Source: Nitrospinota bacterium
GTDB taxonomy: Bacteria > JADFOP01
Direction of reading: 5' to 3'
Length of the DNA: 43,380 nucleotides
Assembly: GCA_022562795.1 (NCBI GenBank)
Contig: JADFOP010000001.1
Location: forward strand, 84,691 to 128,070
Shown: one piece after another, positions 4,760 through 33,806 of the stretch
Numbering within the stretch: position 1 is the first letter of the stretch
Layout: the number at the start of each line of letters is the position of its first letter
Notes under the pieces: generated by a model
Database searches by the model: none
What the model was told of the DNA's origin: nothing
What the model saw: the letters and a program-made list of their open reading frames with translations, nothing else
Translations under genes and position numbers: made by a program

Positions 4760-5410
4760 TTACTCCACTCGCTGCGATGACTTGAGCGGAAGTGCTTCTC
4801 CCTTAAATATCCAGACCTTTACGCCGATTGCCCCATATAAGGTCTTGGCCTCGGCGAACCCGTAGTCGATGTCGGCCCCGAGAGTGTGCAGAGGGACACG
4901 GCCCTCCCGGTACCACTCGCGCCTGGCCATTTCAGTGCCGCCGAGCCGCCCTGCGCAGGCGATGCGAATGCCCTTCGCCCCAAGGCGCATTGCCTGGGTC
5001 ACGGCCCGCTTCATCGCCCGGCGGAAGGCCACCCGCCGCACCAGCTGCATTGCGACATTCTCCGCCACAAGCTGAGCATCGACCTCAGCTTTCCGAATCT
5101 CCTGAATGTTAATGGTTATCTGGCTATCGGTCAGCTTCGCAATGTCCTTCTTAAGCCGATCAACCTCGGCGCCCCTCTTGCCAATAATGATCCCCGGCCG
5201 AGCCGTGTAGATGTTGACTCGGATCTTGTCGCTCGTCCTCTCAATTTCTACGCGGGAGATCCCCCCGTGGGAGAGCTCCTCCTTAATGAAATTCCTTATT
5301 TTGATGTCCTCGTGGAGGAGCTCAGCGTAGTTCTTCTTGGCGAACCAGTTGGACGACCACGTCTTCGTAATCCCCAACCGAAACCCGATGGGATGAACCT
5401 TTTGACCCAC
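4760..5410 (-). CDS. rpsC: 30S ribosomal protein S3 (uS3)
   Basis: [15 protein letters not shown] motif [16 protein letters not shown]. Confidence 0.98.
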
Positions 5411-5422
5411 GTTCGCCTCCTC

Positions 5423-5761
5423 TTACTCCTCAGGGCGGAGCACCACCGTGATGTGGGAGGTTCGTTTGCGGATACGGGTTGTCCGGCCGCGTGCCCGAGG
5501 GCGCCAGCGCTTCGCGATCGGCCCCCCGTTGACGAAGGCCTCTGTAATCCGCAGGTTGTCCACATCCACGTCGTCGTCGCGATGCCGGGCATTGGCCACC
5601 GCGCTCTTGATGAGCTTCTCCAGAAACCGGGCCGGCTTCTTGGGTGCGTGGCCCAGAATGATCAATGCCTCGTTTACGGTCTTGCCCCGAATCAGGTCGA
5701 TGACCTGACGGGTCTTTTGCGGTGAGGACCGTACGTAATTGAGCGAAGCCTTTGCTTCCAT
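5423..5761 (-). CDS. rplV: 50S ribosomal protein L22 (uL22)
   Basis: SPQKTRQVIDLIRG, KRWRPRARGR, KRTSHITV. Confidence 0.98.
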   Translation of the reverse strand: MEAKASLNYVRSSPQKTRQVIDLIRGKTVNEALIILGHAPKKPARFLEKLIKSAVANARHRDDDVDVDNLRITEAFVNGGPIAKRWRPRARGRTTRIRKRTSHITVVLRPEE

Positions 5762-5776
5762 AGATTATCCCAGCCG

Positions 5777-6061
5777 CTACTTGAGCGATACGGTCCGCCT
5801 GGTATGGCCGGAGTGGCCGCGAAAGGTGCGGGTTGGGCTGAATTCGCCCAGTTTGTGCCCCACCATGTTCTCCGTCACGTAGACCGGTATGAATTTATTG
5901 CCGTTATGGACGGCGATCGTGTGGCCGACAAAGTCCGGCACTATGGTACTCCGACGCGACCAGGTTCTAATGATTTTTTTCTCCCCCGTAGCGTTCATAC
6001 GCTGGAGGCGCTTCAGAAGGCGCTCATCGACGAAGGGCCCTTTTTTAACGGATCGAGGCAT
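5777..6061 (-). CDS. rpsS: 30S ribosomal protein S19 (uS19)
   Basis: [31 protein letters not shown]. Confidence 0.98.
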
Positions 6062-6075
6062 TACACACCGCTCCT

Positions 6076-6903
6076 CTATCTGGCCCGGCGGCGTCGGATG
6101 ATGTACCGATCACTGGGCTTCTGACGCCTGGTCTTGTAGCCCTTGGTAGGCTTGCCCCACGGTGTGGAGGGGTGACGTCCGCCGGAACTCTTGCCCTCGC
6201 CTCCGCCGTGGGGGTGGTCCACAGGGTTCATGGCCACGCCTCGCACACGAGGGCGCCGGCCCAACCATCGTGATCGGCCGGCTTTTCCAAGGGAAATGTT
6301 CTCGTGATCGGGGTTCCCCACTTGGCCGACAGTCGCCCTGCAGTCTAGGTGGATCATCCGGACCTCACCGGAGCTTAGCCTAAGCTGGGCGTAGTTCCCC
6401 TCTTTGGCCATGAGCTGAGCGCCCGTGCCGGCACCCCGTATGAGCTGGCCGCCTCGGCCTTTGGTCAACTCGACGTTGTGCACGATGGTCCCCAAGGGGA
6501 TGAAGCGCAGCGGCATAGCATTGCCCGGCTTGATGTCGGCCGACGGCCCGCTGAGCACCTCGTCGCCCACTTTTAGGTTCAACGGGGCGATGATGTAGCG
6601 CTTCTCCCCGTCTGCGTAATGAAGCAGGGCGATTCGGGCAGACCGGTTGGGGTCGTATTCCAACGCGGCTACCCGCGCGGGCACATCCGTCTTGTCCCGC
6701 TTGAAGTCGATCATCCGGTACACGCGCTTGTGCCCGCCACCGCGGTGGCGGGACGTAATGCGTCCAGCGTTGTTGCGCCCGCCCCGCTTGCGCAACCCCT
6801 TGGTGAGGCGTTTTTCCGGCTTTTTCCGAGTTAGGTCATCCGTCGTCAGGACCGACATAAATCGCCGGCCGGGGCTCGTTGGCTTGAAATGCTTAATCCC
6901 CAT
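6076..6903 (-). CDS. rplB: 50S ribosomal protein L2 (uL2)
   Basis: [13 protein letters not shown] and [17 protein letters not shown]. Confidence 0.99.
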
Positions 6904-6912
6904 GCTTCACCC

Positions 6913-7203
6913 CTAGACGCCTTCGAAGAACTCAATCTTATCGCCGGATTTCAGGCTCACCACCGCCTTTTTCCAATCGGGCCGCTTGCCCACCTTCATC
7001 CTCATCCGTCGTTTTTTGCCCTGCATGTTGCTCGTGTGAACATCGAGCACCGTGACGTTGAAGATATTCTGCACGGCCTCTTTAATCTGCCGCTTGGTCG
7101 CCCCCGGTGCAACTTTGAAGGCCACCTTGTTGAGGGTCTCCTTCTGGTTGGTCGTCTTCTCCGTCAAAATCGGGTTGCGAATGATGCGGTATAGCTTATC
7201 CAA
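6913..7203 (-). CDS. rplW: 50S ribosomal protein L23 (uL23)
   Basis: PILTEKT, IKEAVQNIFNV, WKKAVVSL; TTG start overlapping the end of rplD. Confidence 0.97.
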   Translation of the reverse strand: MDKLYRIIRNPILTEKTTNQKETLNKVAFKVAPGATKRQIKEAVQNIFNVTVLDVHTSNMQGKKRRMRMKVGKRPDWKKAVVSLKSGDKIEFFEGV

Positions 7204-7825
7204 GGCTTAAGCGCTCCTCAACCCTGGCCACGGCGTCCTCGCCCACAAGCAGGAGCCGCTCGTGCCTCAAGATGTCGTAGACATTCAGTCCCTCCACCCG
7301 CACGGCCGAGACATTTGGAAGGTTGCGGGCCGAGCGCTCTAAAATGAGGTTTGCCTCGGCCAGGACCACCAAAACGGACCCCTCGATGCCCAGTTTCTCA
7401 AGGACAGCGGCAAAGGCTTTCGTCTTAGGCTCCTCCATCTCGATGGCATCAACCACGACAATAGCGCCCTCGCTGAGGCGGAGGCTCAGGGCTCCGCGCA
7501 GGGCCGCCCGGCGAACCTTCTTTGGCACGCGCTGGCTGAACGAACGGGGTTTGGGTGGAAAGATGACCCCACCGCCCCGCCAGAGGGGCGTTCGACGGGT
7601 TCCCACCCTGGCCCGGCCTAAGCCTTTCTGACGCCAAGGCTTAGCCGAGGTGCCTGAAACCTCGCCACGGCTCTTCGCCGATGCGGTCCCCCGGCGACGG
7701 GCGGCCAGCTGAGCCACGACGACCTCGTGGAGAAGATGCTCCTTGACGGGAGCTCCAAAAACCTCCTCCATTACGGCTCGGCGCCCCACCACCTCGTTGT
7801 CCACGTTTCTAAGCTCCAACTCCAC
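7196..7825 (-). CDS. rplD: 50S ribosomal protein L4 (uL4)
   Basis: KSRGEVSG, KPWRQKGLGRARVG, PLWRGGGVIFPPKPR. Confidence 0.98.
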   Translation of the reverse strand: MELELRNVDNEVVGRRAVMEEVFGAPVKEHLLHEVVVAQLAARRRGTASAKSRGEVSGTSAKPWRQKGLGRARVGTRRTPLWRGGGVIFPPKPRSFSQRVPKKVRRAALRGALSLRLSEGAIVVVDAIEMEEPKTKAFAAVLEKLGIEGSVLVVLAEANLILERSARNLPNVSAVRVEGLNVYDILRHERLLLVGEDAVARVEERLSLG

Positions 7826-7848
7826 AGTGAACCCCTTGTCCCAGCCTC

Positions 7849-8697
7849 TTAAACTTTGGCCTTGGCCCGCCGGGTCGCCTTGAGGCTCTTGCGGACCATA
7901 ACGTAACCACCATTGGGACCGGGCACGGCCCCACGGACCATCAGTAGGTTTTTCTCCGGGACGACCCGCACCACCTTAAGATTCTGGACAGTCACGCGGG
8001 AGTTGCCCATCTGGCCCGGCATCTTAGTGCCTTTGAAGACCCGCGATGGATCGGAAGCCGCACCGATTGAGCCTCCGTGGCGAAAGTGCTCATGGGTCCC
8101 GTGGGTGGCCTTTGCCCCTTTGAATCCGTGCCGTTTCATCACCCCGGAGAAGCCTTTACCCTTGGAAATACCGATGACATCAACCAGTTCGTCAGCATCA
8201 AAAGCCTCACAGGTTACGATGCCACCCGGGGCGGCATCCGGCAGAGGCTCCTCCAGACGTATCTCGCGAAGCAGGCGGGTGGGCTCGACGCCGTGAGCGG
8301 TGAAGTGGCCCTTTCTGGGCATGGAAACCAGCTTTGGTCGAACGTCCCCAAAGCCCAACTGGAGGGCGTCGTAGCCGTCCCGCTCGCGGGTCTTTACCTG
8401 GACCACCACGCAAGGGCCGGCCTCAATAATGGTCACCGGCAACCGGTTGCCGTCGGCGGAAAAAATCTGGGTCATCCCCACCTTCCTGCCCAGAATTCCC
8501 GGGGCGGCCACGAAAGCATCCTCCGGCTCAGCGGGGGGCGGCTCGTCTTCGGGGACTTCCACCTCCTCTTCGGCATCGGCCTTCACTTCGGTTTCAGCTT
8601 CGGCATCGGCCTTCACTTCGGTTTCAGCTTCGGCATCGGCCTTCGCCTCGGTTTCAGCTTCGGCCTCGGGGGCCTCTTGACCCTTCTCTTCGCTCAC
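7849..8697 (-). CDS. rplC: 50S ribosomal protein L3 (uL3) with a ~62-aa acidic N-terminal extension; alternative internal start at 8511
   Basis: GILGRKVGMTQIF, SKGKGFSGVMKRHGF, KGTKMPGQMG. The upstream GTG follows the rpsJ stop with AAGGA; the internal GTG at 8511 follows GGAGG. Confidence 0.96.
   Translation of the reverse strand: MSEEKGQEAPEAEAETEAKADAEAETEVKADAEAETEVKADAEEEVEVPEDEPPPAEPEDAFVAAPGILGRKVGMTQIFSADGNRLPVTIIEAGPCVVVQVKTRERDGYDALQLGFGDVRPKLVSMPRKGHFTAHGVEPTRLLREIRLEEPLPDAAPGGIVTCEAFDADELVDVIGISKGKGFSGVMKRHGFKGAKATHGTHEHFRHGGSIGAASDPSRVFKGTKMPGQMGNSRVTVQNLKVVRVVPEKNLLMVRGAVPGPNGGYVMVRKSLKATRRAKAKV
8568..8664. repeat. 30-bp tandem repeat, about 3.2 copies, in the 5' extension of rplC (unit encodes EAETEVKADA)
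   Basis: Unit cttcggcatcggccttcacttcggtttcag: two exact copies plus one with 2 substitutions, then a partial copy. Confidence 0.95.
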
Positions 8698-8708
8698 AGC
8701 CTTTTTCC

Positions 8709-9047: not shown

Positions 9048-10241
9048 TTACTCTAGGATTTTGGATATGACGCCGGCGCCGACGGTCCGGCCGCCCTCTC
9101 GGATGGCGAACCTCAGGCCCTCCTCCATGGCGATGGGCGTTATCAGCTCACCCACCACAGAGACGTTGTCGCCCGGCATCACCATCTCGACACCCTCGGG
9201 CAACTTAACAATGCCCGTTACGTCGGTCGTTCGAAAGTAAAACTGCGGGCGGTACCCGCTGAAGAAAGGCGTGTGACGCCCCCCCTCCTCCTTCGTCAAG
9301 ACGTAGATCTCGCCGGAGAAATGCGTGTGGGGTTTGATCGAGCCGGGAGCGCTCACGACCTGGCCGCGCTCCACATCCTCGCGCTTAAGCCCGCGCAGCA
9401 ATACACCGATGTTGTCTCCCGCCTCGCCGCGGTCGAGAAGCTTGCGGAACATCTCGACACCCGTGGCCACGGTCTTGACCGTCTCTTTGAGACCAACGAT
9501 CTCCACCTCATCGCCGACGGTCACCACGCCGCGGTCCACACGACCCGTCGCAACCGTCCCGCGCCCGGAGATAGAGAAGACATCCTCGACGGGCATCAAA
9601 AACGGCTTGTCCACGTCCCGCTCCGGAACGGGAATGTAGGTGTCGATCGCATCGAGCAGCTCAAAGATGCTCGCACAGTCCGGGTCCTCCGGGTCTCCGC
9701 TCTCAAGAGCCTTCAGCGCGCTGCCCGGGATCACCGGTATATCGTCGCCAGGAAAATCATACTGGCTCAACAGCTCGCGGATCTCGAGCTCCACCAACTC
9801 CACCAACTCCGGGTCGTCAACCTGGTCGACCTTGTTCAGGTAGACCACCAACGACGGCACCCCAACCTGGCGGGCCAAAAGAATGTGCTCGCGTGTCTGA
9901 GGCATCGGCCCGTCAGAGGCGCTCACCACGACGACCGCACCATCCATCTGAGCCGCCCCCGTAATCATGTTCTTTACGTAGTCGGCGTGACCAGGACAAT
10001 CCACATGGGCGTAGTGGCGAGTCTCGGTCTCATACTCCACGTGGGCCGTCGCAATCGTGATGCCACGCTCGCGCTCCTCGGGAGCCTTATCAATCTCGTC
10101 GAACGAAACGTAGGAGGCCAGACCCTTCTTCTCAAGCAACAGCGTAATGGCCGCCGTCAACGTCGTCTTGCCGTGGTCGACGTGCCCAATGGTCCCCACG
10201 TTCACGTGGGGCTTCGTCCTTACAAACTTCTCCTTCGCCAT
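9048..10241 (-). CDS. tuf: Elongation factor Tu (str-operon copy)
   Basis: [31 protein letters not shown]. Confidence 0.99.
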
Positions 10242-13466: not shown

Positions 13467-17627
<4,161 letters not shown>

Positions 17628-20600: not shown

Positions 20601-21784
20601 GTCTTATCAGTCGCCAGGGAGTCGCGCAAAGAGCGGTCATCCCGCTCAGGGTGGATGTGGAGGATGGAAAAGGCGCGAATTTTCCGATCCCGGACGACCT
20701 CGAGAGTCTCGCCAGTTACCTCTGTGTTGACCTCCAAGAAAATCTCCCCCGTCTCTTCATCGATGACGTCACGAGCGATCGTTTGGCCAATTAGCACTTC
20801 TTCGTGAAGGGGGATATCCCTTGTGCGGGCGGCCCTAAGCTTCTTTAGAGCTACACGGGTTATACGGCGGCCTGCCTTAACAATGACCTCACCATCTTTA
20901 TCAACTATATCCTGCCCAGCTTTTACACCTACGAGAAGGTCGCTGACCTTGATGGTGAACTCATCTTTTATCGATTTGTAAGTAATCTCATCAAATTCAT
21001 AGAATATCTCCATGAGCTCATCGGTGGAGTAGCCCATGGCTCGAAGCAGAGTCGTGGCCGGGAGTTTCCTGCGCCGATCGATGCGGACGTAAATATGGTT
21101 CTTGGCATCCAGCTCAAAGTCTAGCCAACTGCCACGGTACGGAATGACCCGGGCCGAGTACACTACTTTGCCGGTGGTGGTACTCTTGCCTTTGTCGTGG
21201 GCGAAGAAGACCCCCGGCGACCGGTGCATTTGGCTTACGATTACCCGCTCAGTCCCGTTGATGATGAACGTCCCGTTCTCGGTTATAATGGGGATTTCGC
21301 CAAGGTAGACTTTTTGCTCTTTCACGTCCCGAAGACGCAGCTCACCCGTATCCTCTTCCTTCTCGTAGACCACGAGACGCACCATAATCTTCATCGGGTC
21401 GCCGTAGGTCATCCCTCGCTGGCGGCATTCGTCCACCTCATATTTCGGCTTATAAATGAGAGGTTTACCGCACACCTCACACTTCATACGCGGCCCGCCT
21501 AGGCCCTTGTACTCTCCGCATTCGCATTCCCACAAGCCGATTTCGTAGCCCACATACTCCAGGAAGGCGGTCTCGTTGAAATCGCTAATGGGAAAGACGC
21601 TCCGGAAGACCTCATCCAGCCCCCCCAGGGTTCTTTCGCCTTGGGCCCTGTCGTGTTGGAGGAACCGTTGATAGGAGCGCTGCTGGATTTCGATAAGGTT
21701 GGGGACGTCGATTATGGTTGGGATGCGGGCGAAGTTATGCCTCTTGCGCAATCCCGTGTGATGGGTCCTCGTCTTTGTTGCCAT
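17690..21784 (-). CDS. rpoB: RNA polymerase beta subunit
   Basis: [50 protein letters not shown]. Confidence 0.99.
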
Positions 21785-24012: not shown

Positions 24013-24867
24013 TCAGACCTTCTCCACCTGGAGGAACTCCATCTCGACCGGTGTGGCCCTCCCAAAGATGGTCACCATGACCCGTAGCTTGGCTCGAACG
24101 TCGTCCACCTCCTCGATCATCCCCGTAAAGTTGGTAAATGGCCCATCTACTATACGGACGTTCTCTCCTCGCTCGAACAACACCTTGAGCTTAGGTTTTT
24201 CGGCCTCGCCCCGCATCTGCTCGACGATGAACCTGATCTCATCGGTGGCCAGCGGCGTGGGATTCCGCCCTCCTCCAAGAATGCCGGTTACCTTGGGGGT
24301 GTTTTTTATTAGGTACCAGGTGTCGTCGGATAGCTCCATTTCCACCAAGACATAGCCGGGGAAGAACTTCCGGTCGCTAATACGCTTCTTGCCTCCCTTC
24401 ATCTCCACAACCGGCTCTGAAGGCACTATAATTTGAGGAATCCATTCTCTCAGGCCAAGGGCGTTGATCCGCTCTTCCATGCTCGCTTTGACCTTGGCCT
24501 CGTAGCCAGAGTAGGTATGAACAACATACCAGTCTTTGCCTGGGCCCGATGAGAGTACGGGTCCGCCGAGGGTGACCTCCGCTTCTTCCAAAGCTTCCTC
24601 TTGGTCCTCCTCCACCGGGGCTTCTACCGCTTCTTCCAAAGCTTCCTCTTGGTCCATCTCAGCCGAGACTTCTAGCGCCTCTTCCACGGCTTCCTCTTGG
24701 TCCTCCTCAACCTGAGCTACTACGGCAACCTCCTCGAGGTGGGAGTCTTCAGGAGCAAGCTCGTGAGGCGTGTCGGAGGCGACCTCCTCCGCCCAATCCT
24801 TGGAGTCGTCTTCCGCCTCGCCCTCTCGGTCGGCCTCGTCCGTCAAGCTGATCTCTTTCTCACTCAC
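24013..24867 (-). CDS. nusG: Transcription factor NusG with a ~110-aa acidic N-terminal extension
   Basis: NGN domain WYVVHTYSGYE...FFPGYVLVEM and KOW domain VRIVDGPFTNFTG...IFGRATPVE; the GTG start overlaps the secE stop (GTGA). Confidence 0.96.
   Translation of the reverse strand: MSEKEISLTDEADREGEAEDDSKDWAEEVASDTPHELAPEDSHLEEVAVVAQVEEDQEEAVEEALEVSAEMDQEEALEEAVEAPVEEDQEEALEEAEVTLGGPVLSSGPGKDWYVVHTYSGYEAKVKASMEERINALGLREWIPQIIVPSEPVVEMKGGKKRISDRKFFPGYVLVEMELSDDTWYLIKNTPKVTGILGGGRNPTPLATDEIRFIVEQMRGEAEKPKLKVLFERGENVRIVDGPFTNFTGMIEEVDDVRAKLRVMVTIFGRATPVEMEFLQVEKV
24581..24712. repeat. 48-bp-period repeat, three copies, in the nusG 5' extension (DQEEA(L/V)EEA)
   Basis: gcttcttccaaagcttcctcttggtcc at 24581 and 24629, with a variant at 24677. 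Confidence 0.9.
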
Positions 24868-25424: not shown

Positions 25425-26618
25425 TTACTCTAGGATTTTGGCTATGACGCCGGCGCCGACGGTCCGGCCGCCCTCTCGGATGGCGAACCTCAGGCCCTCT
25501 TCCATGGCGATGGGCGTTATCAGCTCGCCCTCCACAGAGACGTTGTCGCCCGGCATCACCATCTCAACACCCTCTGGCAACTTAACGATACCCGTTACGT
25601 CGGTCGTTCGAAAATAGAACTGCGGGCGATACCCGCTGAAGAAAGGCGTGTGACGCCCCCCCTCCTCCTTCGTCAAGACGTAGACCTCGCCGGAGAAATG
25701 CGTGTGGGGCTTGATCGAGCCGGGAGCGCTCACGACCTGGCCGCGCTCCACATCCTCGCGCTTAAGCCCGCGCAGCAATACACCGATGTTGTCTCCGGCC
25801 TCGCCGCGGTCGAGAAGCTTGCGGAACATCTCGACACCCGTGGCCACAGTCTTGACCGTCTCTTTGAGACCCACGATCTCCACCTCATCGCCGACGGTCA
25901 CCACGCCACGGTCCACACGACCCGTCGCAACCGTCCCGCGACCAGAGATAGAGAAGACATCCTCGACGGGCATCAAAAACGGCTTGTCCACGTCCCGCTC
26001 CGGCACGGGAATGTAGCTGTCGATCGCATCGAGCAGCTCAAAGATGCTCGCACAGTCCGGGTCCTCCGGATCTCCGCTCTCAAGAGCCTTCAGCGCGCTG
26101 CCCTTGATCACCGGTATATCGTCGCCAGGAAAATCATACTGGCTCAACAGCTCGCGGATCTCGAGCTCCACCAACTCCACCAACTCCGGGTCGTCAACCT
26201 GGTCGACCTTGTTCAGGTAGACCACCAACGACGGCACCCCAACCTGGCGGGCCAAAAGAATGTGCTCGCGTGTCTGAGGCATCGGCCCGTCAGAGGCGCT
26301 CACCACGACGACCGCACCATCCATCTGAGCCGCCCCCGTAATCATGTTCTTTACGTAGTCGGCGTGACCAGGACAATCCACATGGGCGTAGTGGCGAGTC
26401 TCGGTCTCATACTCCACGTGGGCCGTCGCAATCGTGATGCCACGCTCGCGCTCCTCGGGGGCCTTATCAATCTCGTCGAACGAAACGTAGGAGGCCAGAC
26501 CCTTCTTCTCAAGCAACAGCGTAATGGCCGCCGTCAACGTCGTCTTGCCGTGGTCGACGTGCCCAATGGTCCCCACGTTCACGTGGGGCTTCGTCCTTAC
26601 AAACTTCTCCTTCGCCAT
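25425..26618 (-). CDS. tuf: Elongation factor Tu (tRNA-linked copy)
   Basis: Differs from the 9048-10241 copy at 5 of 397 residues. Confidence 0.99.
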
Positions 26619-30753: not shown

Positions 30754-31764
30754 TTAGACCGCCTCCCGCTCGACCTCCTCCTTAGGACGGGTGAAAATCA
30801 TTCGGCCAGCGGTGGTCTGGAGTACGCTGGTGACCAAGACATCGAGGGATTTTCCGATTAAACGGCGAGCGTTGTCGACCACGACCATTGTGCCGTCGTC
30901 CAGGTAGGCGACCCCCTGGCCGGCCTCCTTGCCTTCCTTGAGGATGTAGACGTTCATCATCTCGCCGGGCAGGACAACGGGCTTGACAGCGTTGGCCAGC
31001 TGGTTGATGTTGAGAACACCAACGCCCTGGAGCTCAGCGACCTTATTGAGGTTAAAATCGTTGGTCAAGACCTTGGCGTCGAGATCCTTGCCCAAGGCCA
31101 CGAGCTTGGCATCCACCTCTTTAATTTTCGGGAAATCTTGGTCGAGGAACTGGATGTCGATCTCCATGTTCTTTTGCATTCGCTGAAGAATGTCCAACCC
31201 CCGTCGGCCTCGGTTGCGCTTCAAGCTATCGGGCGAATCCGCAATCTGCTGGAGCTCTTTCAGGACGAACTGGGGGATGATAAGAGGGCCTTCCAAAAAC
31301 CCCGCCTCGGAGATGTCGGCGACCCTCCCGTCGATGATGACACTGGTATCCAGGATTTTCGTGTTCTTGGAACCGGAGTCCTCAACTATTCGGTCAAGGC
31401 CGGGAATTTCAATCTCGCGGCTCTTGATAACCCCCAGCATGAGTCCCAGGTAGCCTCCTATGAAGAAGACCAGGCTACGGACCAGAAACTGGGCCAGAGG
31501 GTCTTGGCCGGGCCAGCTAGAGAAGGCCATAAGCACCAGGCGAGCCGTGATCAACCCAAGGATGAGGCCTACGAACCCCCCGACAAGCCTGCGGGGCTGA
31601 ACCTGGCTGAGAGTACGCTCCAGGACGCAAATGAGCAACCCAGCGAAGAAGCCCACACCGATGCCGGTAATGATCCCCTCGTAGCCCAGGTACTGTGTGC
31701 CTATGTAGTAGCCCAGCAACGTTGTGCCCACGACTAGGGAAAACCGTAATCCGTATAGTCCCAT
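30754..31764 (-). CDS. Membrane-anchored PIN/TRAM domain protein (YacL-like)
   Basis: About four N-terminal TM helices, PIN motifs LDTSVIIDGR and TNDFNLNKVA, TRAM motif GKEAGQGVAYLDDGTMVVV; ATG 31764 after AAGGGGGA. Confidence 0.92.
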   Translation of the reverse strand: MGLYGLRFSLVVGTTLLGYYIGTQYLGYEGIITGIGVGFFAGLLICVLERTLSQVQPRRLVGGFVGLILGLITARLVLMAFSSWPGQDPLAQFLVRSLVFFIGGYLGLMLGVIKSREIEIPGLDRIVEDSGSKNTKILDTSVIIDGRVADISEAGFLEGPLIIPQFVLKELQQIADSPDSLKRNRGRRGLDILQRMQKNMEIDIQFLDQDFPKIKEVDAKLVALGKDLDAKVLTNDFNLNKVAELQGVGVLNINQLANAVKPVVLPGEMMNVYILKEGKEAGQGVAYLDDGTMVVVDNARRLIGKSLDVLVTSVLQTTAGRMIFTRPKEEVEREAV

Positions 31765-31830
31765 GGGTCTATCCCCCTTTGTGGTCGTGGACGGCAAGGT
31801 TCTCGGAGGCATGGCGCCTTCCGAGACAGC

Positions 31831-32310
31831 TTATTTAGCGACGAGGTTGTCCAGAAGGGTGACGACCGAATCCTTGGATATGCCCCGCACTTGGGAAATC
31901 TCTTCGGAGATGAGTTCGCGCACGTTATCGAGAACCCGTTTCTCGCCGAAAGAGAGGGTCTTGCGGGTCTTGAGTCTGGTCAGGTCGCGGTAAATCTTTG
32001 CGATTTCGAAGACACAGCCGGTCTTAATTGTCTCCATATATTGCTTGGAGCGCCGGTTCCAAGCCTCGGTGCTCCTCGACTCGCGCTGTTTGAGGACTTC
32101 CATCACCTTTTTAACATCGGCTTCTCGAATGACTTCCCGCAGCCCCACCTTGCGGCTGTTGGCTGTCGGCACCATGATGGTCATACCACGTTCGTACATA
32201 TGCAAGATATAGAATGATTCCTCGGTGCCCGACATTTCACGGTTTTGGATGTCCCCAACGACCCCGACACCATGCGACGGATAGACTACCTTGTCGCCCA
32301 CTTTAAACAT
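31831..32310 (-). CDS. carD: CarD/CdnL-family RNA polymerase-binding transcription factor
   Basis: MFKVGDKVVYPSHGVG, IMVP, VGLR, WNRR (conserved wedge Trp), LSFGEK. Confidence 0.93.
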   Translation of the reverse strand: MFKVGDKVVYPSHGVGVVGDIQNREMSGTEESFYILHMYERGMTIMVPTANSRKVGLREVIREADVKKVMEVLKQRESRSTEAWNRRSKQYMETIKTGCVFEIAKIYRDLTRLKTRKTLSFGEKRVLDNVRELISEEISQVRGISKDSVVTLLDNLVAK

Positions 32311-32441: not shown

Positions 32442-33806
32442 TTAGCTTTTATCGAAGAGAACGGCAAAGGCATCTTCTAGTGTGGCCACCTCGACAGCCT
32501 TTAGAGCCAGGCCGGGCTGGTCGGAGCCGGTGCGAGGAGGGATGATAGCCTGCTTAAAGCCGAGGGAGGCGGCCTCTTTACATCGAGCTTCCAGCTGGGG
32601 AACCGTCCGCACCTCCCCGGTGAGGCCCACCTCGCCTAGGCATACCGCCTCGAAGGGAACGGGGCGGCTGCGGAAGCTAGAAATGATGGCGCACGCAACC
32701 CCAAGGTCGCTTGCCGGCTCCACGATGCGCACTCCGCCAGCCACGTTGAGATAGATGTCTTGGTCGTGCAACGCAAAGCCTGCCCGCTTCTCGAGGATGG
32801 CCGCCAGGAGTGCGAGCCGATTAGGGTCGAGCCCGGTTGCCATCCGCCTTGGGAGGGCCAGGGAGGAGGGACTAACCAGGGCTTGGACCTCCAGTAGGAT
32901 AGGTCGAGTACCCTCCATGGCCACCACCACCACGCTGCCGGGCTGGTCAACTGGGCGCTGGGCGAGAAACGTCGCCGATGGGTTGAGGACCTCGCGGAGA
33001 CCATCGCCACCCATCTCGAAGACCCCGATCTCGTGGGTCGAGCCGAATCGGTTCTTCGCCCCGCGGAGAATCCGGTAAGGGCTCGCCCCTTCGCCTTCGA
33101 AGGCCAACACCACATCAACCATGTGCTCCAGGACTCGGGGGCCGGCCACGGCGCCGTCCTTGGTCACATGGCCGACGAGGGCCAAAGGCACGCCCAGGCG
33201 CTTGGCGGCGGCGATGAGTTGGGCGGCCACCTCACGGACCTGCCCCACGCTTCCAGGGGCCGAGGTCAGGGTTGAGGTGTAGCAGGTCTGGATGGAGTCT
33301 ATAACGCAGAGGGCGGGCCGGGTGGCCTCCAAGTGGCCCAGGATAGCTTCGACGTTGGTCTCAGCCAAAACCAGGAGATCTTTTTCCATAACCCCCAGCC
33401 GGCGGGCCCTTAGGCTAATCTGTCCCGGGCTCTCTTCGCCCGATACATAGAGGACCGGGGCGCCGCCTGCAGCCAGGCGGCCTGCGGCCTGGAGCAGGAG
33501 GGTCGATTTTCCGACCCCCGGGTCGCCCGCCACGAGAACCACTGAGCCGGCCACGAGACCCCCGCCCAGGACGCGGTCGAACTCGCTGATGCCTGTGCGC
33601 TGGCGAGGCTCCTCGCCTGCGGCCACCGAGTCGATTGGCACGGGCGAAGCGGCGGTAAGGCTCAGGCGCGGACGGACGTCTCGGCCTGAGGCTTCCACCT
33701 CCTCGGCCATGGTGTTCCAGCCGCCGCAATCGGGGCACCGGCCGAGCCACTTGGGCGAGGAGTAGCCGCAGGCTTGACAAACGAACGAGCTTTTTGGTCG
33801 CGCCAT
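32442..33806 (-). CDS. radA: DNA repair protein RadA/Sms
   Basis: C4 zinc finger CQAC...CPDC, Walker A GDPGVGKST, KNRFG motif, Lon-like C-terminal domain. Confidence 0.98.
   Translation of the reverse strand: MARPKSSFVCQACGYSSPKWLGRCPDCGGWNTMAEEVEASGRDVRPRLSLTAASPVPIDSVAAGEEPRQRTGISEFDRVLGGGLVAGSVVLVAGDPGVGKSTLLLQAAGRLAAGGAPVLYVSGEESPGQISLRARRLGVMEKDLLVLAETNVEAILGHLEATRPALCVIDSIQTCYTSTLTSAPGSVGQVREVAAQLIAAAKRLGVPLALVGHVTKDGAVAGPRVLEHMVDVVLAFEGEGASPYRILRGAKNRFGSTHEIGVFEMGGDGLREVLNPSATFLAQRPVDQPGSVVVVAMEGTRPILLEVQALVSPSSLALPRRMATGLDPNRLALLAAILEKRAGFALHDQDIYLNVAGGVRIVEPASDLGVACAIISSFRSRPVPFEAVCLGEVGLTGEVRTVPQLEARCKEAASLGFKQAIIPPRTGSDQPGLALKAVEVATLEDAFAVLFDKS

Follow-up and report, generated by a model that had tools for sequence, protein, structure and literature searches.

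A four-cysteine module resembling the beta-prime zinc-binding domain in the beta subunit of bacterial RNA polymerase

A 43,380-nucleotide stretch of DNA from a Nitrospinota bacterium (GTDB lineage Bacteria; JADFOP01; contig JADFOP010000001.1, positions 84,691 to 128,070), referred to here as the window, codes for the beta and beta-prime subunits of RNA polymerase (RNAP), RpoB and RpoC. RpoB has an insert of 28 residues with four cysteines in its beta-1 (protrusion) domain. Judging from its sequence, this insert is very probably a diverged copy of the beta-prime zinc-binding domain (ZBD), which would account for both its identity and its origin. The structural zinc sites described for bacterial RNAP number two and are both located in beta-prime; the insert would add, in beta and across whole phyla, a third Cys4 module that descends from one of them. 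The explanation that best accounts for the observations as a whole, a ZBD-derived zinc module in beta with a bracing or docking role, is considered likely.

The insert and its site in the beta-1 domain

The N-terminus of the window RpoB matched 46 distinct solved RpoB sequences (phmmer, E<=1e-10), none of which has the insert. In all three alignments that were inspected the match breaks into two parts that lie next to each other in the solved chain (80/81 in 7xya_C, 79/81 in 7ye1_C and 81/83 in 6j9e_C). The unmatched stretch is therefore 28 residues long and spans L84-Y111. A preliminary description of the window had reported an insertion of about 30 amino acids in RpoB, which is confirmed; its interval 21449-21538 covers G83-K112. 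In agreement with that description, the sequence is YVGYEIG up to G83 and continues with PKYEVDEC past K112. The flank that follows the insert starts at K112, which was aligned to residue 77 of E. coli beta (10ma_I), and aligns to three beta-1 constructs of known structure (3mlq_A, 4xax_A and 4kbj_A), which places the insert in the beta-1 domain, the lobe to which it had been assigned at the outset.

The arrangement of Pfam domains in RpoB (Rpb2_6, Rpb2_2, Rpb2_3, Rpb2_45, Rpb2_7 and Rpb2_1 above cut-off) is consistent with this position. The match to Rpb2_1, the protrusion, begins at residue 118 (profile position 68), past the insert, which lies within the protrusion segment and precedes the first match to a lobe domain (Rpb2_2). 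The insert is in frame between conserved blocks and is kept within lineages, as lineage-specific insertions are. The codons of its cysteines are found at 21524-21526 (C87), 21518-21520 (C89), 21479-21481 (C102) and 21470-21472 (C105). An assembly chimera or a sequencing artefact is ruled out by the reading frame, by the completeness of rpoB and by the presence of the insert in more than 100 independent assemblies.

Similarity to the beta-prime zinc-binding domain

The preliminary description regarded the insert as a copy of the beta-prime zinc domain with equal cysteine spacing. Translation of rpoC verifies the zinc domain at its assigned position (Table 1), and the spacing C-x-C-x12-C-x2-C is found in both segments of this genome. 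The homology extends to the profile level when the insert is compared to the ZBD (the N-terminal part of PF04997; residues ~69-93 in E. coli). Both start with W-E-C-x-C-G-x-[YF]-K and end with [VI]-x-C-x-x-C-G-x-E-V. The common positions that are not ligands comprise the W before the first cysteine, the G that follows the CxC, then, two and three residues past that G, an aromatic residue and a K, [VI]-x before the third cysteine and G-x-E-V after the fourth.

Comparison of the insert with beta-prime of the same genome gave 12 identical residues out of 26 with no gaps and an E-value of 2e-7 as a single comparison (BLASTP). A comparison of profiles, the check suggested together with the claim, was made with two alignments, one of 36 distinct short inserts (A1) and one of 28 distinct ZBDs taken from a broad range of genomes (A2). 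Hhalign aligned them over 28 ungapped columns with 43% identity, at a probability of 98.5% and an E-value of 2e-15. The unrelated second ribbon of the Acidobacteriota-type insert (A7) served as control for generic four-cysteine modules. It matched the ZBD with a probability of 20% over 7 columns and the short insert with 78% over 11 columns.

Database searches led to the same domain. The single insert sequence matched in the PDB mostly beta-prime or cyanobacterial gamma ZBDs, including the best two matches, at E-values of 0.05-1, and no RpoB (phmmer). The hidden Markov model (HMM) of the insert had 89 matches at E<=10 among 177,635 PDB sequences. The best 60 of these 89 were all beta-prime or cyanobacterial gamma ZBDs and none was an RpoB; the best E-value was 1.2e-5, and E. 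coli beta-prime residues 69-93 were matched at 2e-4. In a six-frame search of its own genome the insert profile found the insert itself (1.1e-13) and the beta-prime ZBD (3.7e-8), the next match being at 0.15. The reverse six-frame search of 41 genomes with the first 130 amino acids of beta-prime also found the RpoB insert in four of them (G022, 4e-7; G008, 4.1e-7; G002, 2.7e-4; G034, 5.1e-4). The tests in both directions indicate that the likeness at sequence level is far beyond chance.

The cysteines of the insert are conserved in relatives. Across the 36 short inserts nine positions never vary (G, W, C, C, G, L, G, C, C), and the third and fourth cysteines are found at fixed spacing in 38 of 38 distinct short-form rows, although no search demanded them. 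Their invariance is the basis for proposing that the four cysteines would hold one zinc ion.

Several results did not corroborate descent from the ZBD. None of the 36 inserts, scanned singly against Pfam, had a significant match, PF04997 with its ZBD included. The reverse search with the single 130-residue beta-prime query did not detect the RpoB insert at E<=0.001 in the genome of the window (G000) or in G005. Foldseek, run with a model of the isolated 44-residue segment that includes the insert (mean predicted local distance difference test score, pLDDT, of 68), yielded no PDB match at E<=0.001, the best being 0.65. Its top matches were generic zinc ribbons or rubredoxin-like knuckles, such as TFIIE-alpha and desulforedoxin, and no beta-prime was among the best 50 listed. 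VIA-align of the isolated model against 48,161 chains reached a maximum Z of 2.9, again with generic zinc ribbons and with no beta-prime among the matches listed. Short cysteine-rich profiles can also inflate scores, and the invariance of W85, C87, C89 and G90 in alignments A1 and A4 counts for less as most of their rows were collected with a pattern that demands the first CxC, the W and the G.

W85, C87, C89 and G90 are, independently of that pattern, present in five out of five genomes from a protein search (G002, G008, G034, G022 and G005). As to the fold searches, whose top rows named TFIIE-alpha, aRF1, MCM and desulforedoxin, the insert is too small a domain for Foldseek or VIA-align to decide its fold, and their results do not speak against that of the ZBD. 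These results would fit an independently acquired zinc ribbon that came to resemble the ZBD by convergence, with ligands, size and packing needs alike. The single-insert Pfam scans, whose weak matches are to assorted zinc-ribbon families, and the fact that cysteine ligands make up four of the 12 identities between insert and ZBD in this genome point the same way. Such an origin is nevertheless already disfavoured and very unlikely: the similarity extends to non-ligand positions, the two modules have in common the rare CxC knuckle together with the x12 spacing, the best 60 PDB matches are all ZBDs in a databank where zinc fingers are very numerous, and the control ribbon matches the ZBD over one knuckle only.

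Predicted structure and charge of the module

The structure of RpoB residues 1-236 was predicted with AlphaFold2 (AF2) from an alignment of 47 sequences. The blocks between residues 81 and 120 have pLDDT values of 95-97, compared to 68 for the isolated 44-residue segment. This difference suggests that the insert could be a small rigid knob packed on beta-1. Foldseek with the 236-residue model retrieved RpoB chains only.

The insert differs from the ZBD in the subunit that carries it and in its location within a beta-1 hairpin rather than at the N-terminus of the clamp. It differs also in the loop between the two cysteine pairs, where an invariant L-G-G turn is found in the short inserts at the place of the basic loop of the ZBD. 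The net charge of this loop ranges from -2 to +2 in 36 inserts (mean -0.5; +2 in the insert of the window), while it is +3 to +5 in 28 ZBDs (mean +4.9). The statement in the preliminary description that the insert is less basic than the original domain is thus borne out. The charge of the whole short module is near zero (mean -1.3; 0 in the window). The basic loop by which a ZBD-type module can be recognised is lacking in the insert.

Distribution across bacteria

A protein search in 41 genomes, which comprised the few relatives of the window and a diverse set of others, gave a continuous match through the insert in the five genomes named above and in a fragment from G001. In G024 and G007 the site is occupied by longer inserts. 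About 30 of the 39 genomes with a match had it split, hence without insert. The motif [YF]-E-[ILVMF]-G-x-W-x-C-x-C-G, scanned for in 185,579 species genomes, occurred at no fewer than 120 loci. Among the 120 loci listed, ~109 code for an RpoB that has an insert here, two of them broken in frame after the motif, 9 are chance matches (stops or unrelated frames) and 2 belong to a Streptomyces paralogue. L101 and L122 are Dependentiae-type rpoB genes of chromosomes from metagenome-assembled genomes (MAGs), in which stops or a frameshift occur within or just past the insert; these may be assembly errors or real disruptions.

The short form is present in Nitrospinota/Nitrospina, in Desulfurobacteriaceae and other Aquificota, and in further MAGs. 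A form of 60-64 residues with about 8 cysteines is found in Dependentiae/TM6/Babeliales, a form of 65 residues in Holophagae, Thermoanaerobaculia and Sulfomarinibacter, and forms of 69-70 residues in further MAGs.

Counts per phylum were made with the same strict motif and are hence lower bounds; the reversed control pattern had no match throughout. The motif was found in two of three genomes sampled from the phylum of the window, the third having a fragmented rpoB. In the Nitrospinota-type phylum of G005 it is present in 80 of 120 genomes, in 46 of the 57 of high quality and in all 9 families. The Dependentiae-type phylum of G007 has it in 76/81 genomes and in all 14 families. In the Aquificota-type phylum of G022 it occurs in 17 of 101 genomes, distributed by family as 16/16 in f22, 1/1 in f51, 0/31 in f49, 0/51 in f50 and 0/2 in f52. 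The preliminary description mentioned a longer cysteine-rich insert in Acidobacteriota. This holds for Holophagae and Thermoanaerobaculia, but the strict motif was detected in only 5 of the 301 genomes sampled from that phylum (phylum of G260, Holophagae-type).

Two other searches contributed little on the distribution. A word-indexed search with RpoB residues 72-122 returned 4 close relatives only. The 44-column insert profile, searched with HMMER against 1.84 billion representative sequences, had 35 matches at E<=0.001, mostly short N-terminal fragments, and none of these 35 was an RpoB of full length in which the insert profile matched once and over its whole length. RpoB proteins may cluster at 50% identity under representatives that possibly lack the insert. 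In three of the proteins retrieved, P0007 (3013 amino acids), P0011 (1552) and P0018 (1420), the insert profile matches in part 16-22 times over; they are probably unrelated cysteine-rich repeat proteins.

Long forms of the insert and a Streptomyces gene pair

The long inserts of Dependentiae type and of Holophagae/Thermoanaerobaculia type resemble the short one in their insertion point, in the start W-x-C-x-C-G and in a homologous first module. They differ in length (60-75 residues) and in having about 8 cysteines, which are predicted to form two metal sites. Profile comparison matched the first modules of two long forms to the ZBD with probabilities of 96.8% and 93.4%, and the long-form first module (A5) to the short insert (A1) with 97.2%. 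Of the three insert forms, the short one is closest to the ZBD. In five Dependentiae-type rows (L033, L043, L085, L086 and L095) the two inner cysteine pairs are gone while the first CxC and the last CxxC are kept. Because only the inner pairs are lost in these rows, the long forms would hold a second ribbon nested in, or appended to, a ZBD-like one. Their sequences suggest that the outer cysteine pairs form one site and that the inner ribbon is dispensable.

A gene pair with a long insert of this kind was observed in two Streptomyces isolates (L183; also L112 and L114), away from the contig with the housekeeping rpoB: PF00562 is found once per Streptomyces genome, on a contig other than that of the pair. 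The first gene codes for a protein of 740 amino acids with no Pfam match. Its residues 123-176 match RpoB 38-94, the long cysteine-rich insert at the same site included, and a second stretch, residues 456-531, matches the flap region of RpoB. The second gene codes for a beta-prime-like protein of 658 amino acids (PF04997, E-value 3.6e-31) that has its own ZBD, is 31% identical to beta-prime residues 34-423 and stops before the catalytic region. By sequence, the pair looks like a truncated, non-catalytic version of beta and beta-prime.

Evolution of the insert

The beta-prime ZBD, encoded ~4 kb downstream in the same operon, would have been duplicated into beta long ago. The copy would have entered where the first long strand of beta-1 ends, before the next conserved segment. 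The duplication would not be confined to this genome, the short and the elaborated 60-75-residue forms sharing the RpoB site across phyla. DNA of the insert and of the ZBD is identical at 43/78 nucleotides, and 5 of the 12 identical residues have the same codon; the duplication is for this reason regarded as old. A recent gene conversion from rpoC is ruled out, the synonymous sites being scrambled.

A maximum-likelihood tree was built with 28 RpoB N-terminal halves from which the insert had been removed. All eight insert-bearing rows are on one side of a split with 97% support, together with 9 rows without insert, and the window RpoB forms a 98% clade with those of G002, G008 and G005. The distribution of the insert on the tree needs 3 state changes, compared to a mean of 7.2 on shuffling, with 0 of 500 shuffles as low. 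Forcing the eight insert rows into one clade costs 9.1 log-likelihood units and is not rejected (approximately unbiased test, p-AU 0.225). A single origin of the insert is therefore possible, and losses or transfers are just as possible.

A broader scenario can be drawn. The ZBD would have been transferred once into beta-1, in a common ancestor of the phylum of the window, the Nitrospinota-type and Dependentiae-type phyla, the Aquificota-type family and Holophagae/Thermoanaerobaculia, and a second ribbon would have been nested in it later. The product would now be a functionally important and hitherto unseen second zinc module of RNAP, on which a factor particular to the lineage or nucleic acid from upstream would dock and which survives also in the Streptomyces pair. 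Taken in all its parts this scenario is speculative and rather unlikely. If true, the survival of the module in the Streptomyces pair would hint at a self-standing function of this sub-assembly.

Function and the relation to CarD

The basic loop of the beta-prime ZBD lets this domain touch nucleic acid. Since an invariant, uncharged L-G-G turn replaces this loop, a bracing or docking role is favoured for the insert. The short form would be a structural brace or a protein-docking surface on the outer beta-1 lobe rather than a second nucleic-acid clamp. The functional reading is more tentative than the assignment of origin: on the outside of beta-1 the insert may perhaps form a knob, stabilised by zinc, that gives structural support or docks a protein.

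Contact with nucleic acid is less favoured for the short form, and for the long forms it gains somewhat in plausibility. In its full version the module would be a functional second ZBD on the beta side of the cleft, in contact with promoter DNA, upstream duplex DNA or nascent RNA. The proposal draws on descent from a domain with that very role and on the moderately basic first modules of the long forms, whose mean net charge is about +2.7. It is at odds with the neutral to acidic character of the short form, and it has to accommodate that the loop is the very part swapped for L-G-G, or for whole extra modules in other lineages. A second ZBD of this kind is improbable.

The preliminary description pointed also to CarD and Mfd, which bind the beta-1 lobe, and to the presence of carD in the window. 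The gene is indeed there (Table 1), and an extra module that adjoins the site where the RNAP-interacting domain (RID) of CarD or Mfd docks could tune or strengthen binding of these proteins. In beta-1, helices back an antiparallel sheet of four strands, and the RID extends this sheet at the exposed edge strand 4, beside the loop between strands 3 and 4, as described by Westblade et al. 2010 (PMC3001067). The insert thus shares a domain with the docking site, whose edge strand belongs to the same sheet. From the strand lengths in the AF2 model we infer the strand order 2-1-3-4, which would put a distance of two strands between the insert and the RID edge and would probably place the insert at the far end of the sheet.

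The phyletic evidence, taken together, argues against a tie to CarD. CarD_C (PF21095) is found in 6 of 9 insert-bearing relatives and in 3 of 4 further insert-bearing genomes. The insert and CarD_C co-occur almost perfectly in the phylum of G022, where f22 has CarD_C in 16/16 genomes and all other families have none, although the single f51 genome carries the insert without CarD_C. This co-occurrence amounts to one lineage contrast. It is attributed to lineage history rather than to dependence because the counts diverge in the phylum of G005, in which CarD_C is present in 7/120 genomes, all of family f48, while the insert is found in 80/120 genomes from all nine families. No CarD_C match was obtained in two insert-bearing genomes, G005 (98% complete) and G002 (96% complete and from the class of the window), and CarD was found in control genomes of kinds whose solved RpoBs are without insert. 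A dependence of the insert on CarD is rejected on these counts and the suggested tie to CarD is not supported; an influence of the module on RID docking is judged improbable.

Comparison with known RNAP inserts

Lineage-specific inserts are well represented in RNAP, among them the E. coli beta and beta-prime inserts and the BEAN and HABAS domains treated in PMC11515920. The insert in RpoB is similar to these in being in frame, lineage-restricted and inside a universal domain, absent from model enzymes and distributed along large clades. The same source (2024) locates lineage-specific insertions at five sites in beta, within domains uD2-uD5, most of them BEAN. Relative to the BEAN inserts described there, the RpoB insert lies outside the five sites, is much smaller, is based on four cysteines and would derive from the partner subunit. 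A search of the available text of that paper found no occurrence of zinc, ribbon or cysteine. None of the fold-search rows listed for the insert model is a chain segment that contains BEAN; no direct profile comparison with BEAN was made.

The presence of one module in both large subunits has a precedent in the domains SBHM and BBM1/BBM2 of beta and beta-prime, which arose by an ancient duplication (Iyer et al. 2004, as reported in Cavalier-Smith 2006, PMC1586193). Compared with that case the insert has a different fold and site, is much later and occurs in some phyla only. The passage of PMC1586193 that discusses the inserts of Iyer et al. 2004 does not mention an insert corresponding to this one. 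The genome paper of Nitrospina gracilis has rpoB in a gene table only (PMC3578206). A full-text literature search found no description of a zinc or cysteine-rich insert in bacterial RpoB, though it may be tabulated in Lane & Darst 2010 or Iyer et al. 2004. The view that the feature is under-described therefore holds within the searchable full-text literature, with the reservation that those tables may list the site.

The module would offer a clear example of a domain that has moved from one large RNAP subunit to the other. Most of the carrier groups were sequenced only after 2010, which would explain an omission of the site from older catalogues, should they lack it. Carriers include the cultivable Nitrospina and Desulfurobacteriaceae and the amoeba-associated Dependentiae. 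The insert can serve as a discrete phylogenetic marker for deep bacterial relationships, and it gives structural studies of non-model RNAPs a definite target. Should a factor dock on the module, a lineage-specific control of transcription would come to light; should its role be structural only, the module would modestly extend the known set of RNAP inserts.

Other genes of the window

The rpoB and rpoC genes belong to a block on the minus strand with the usual order tuf-nusG-rplKAJL-rpoB-rpoC-rpsLG-fusA-tuf-S10, and the Pfam domains expected of both subunits were all detected. The features discussed above are collected in Table 1.

Table 1. Features related to the RpoB insert; positions refer to the window except for the Streptomyces pair
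Feature	Position	Strand	Basis
rpoB, RNAP beta subunit, 1364 amino acids	17690..21784	-	translation and Pfam
rpoC, RNAP beta-prime subunit, 1386 amino acids, directly downstream of rpoB	13467..17627	-	translation and Pfam
Insert L84-Y111, 28 residues, beta-prime-ZBD-like four-Cys module in beta-1 (protrusion)	21452..21535	-	unmatched relative to solved RpoB
First knuckle C87-E88-C89 (CxC), putative first zinc-ligand pair	21518..21526	-	sequence
Second knuckle C102-E-V-C105 (CxxC), putative second zinc-ligand pair	21470..21481	-	sequence
Beta-prime ZBD W68-G89 (C70, C72, C85, C88), probable source of the insert	17361..17426	-	sequence
carD	31831..32310	-	
Streptomyces pair, L183 (G565:C4:509000-524000)	open reading frames 4927-7149 and 6728-8704	+

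Two full-length tuf genes, each coding for an EF-Tu of 397 amino acids (9048-10241 and 25425-26618, both on the minus strand), flank the rpoBC-str region. The longest open reading frame for nusG (24013-24867, minus strand) has 284 codons and its NGN domain starts at residue 111, so that either the true start is further downstream or the protein has an N-terminal extension of ~100 residues. The carD gene is flanked by genes for a PIN-TRAM protein (30754-31812, minus strand) and for a RadA/Sms-like protein (32442-33806, minus strand), the latter with an N-terminal zinc ribbon.

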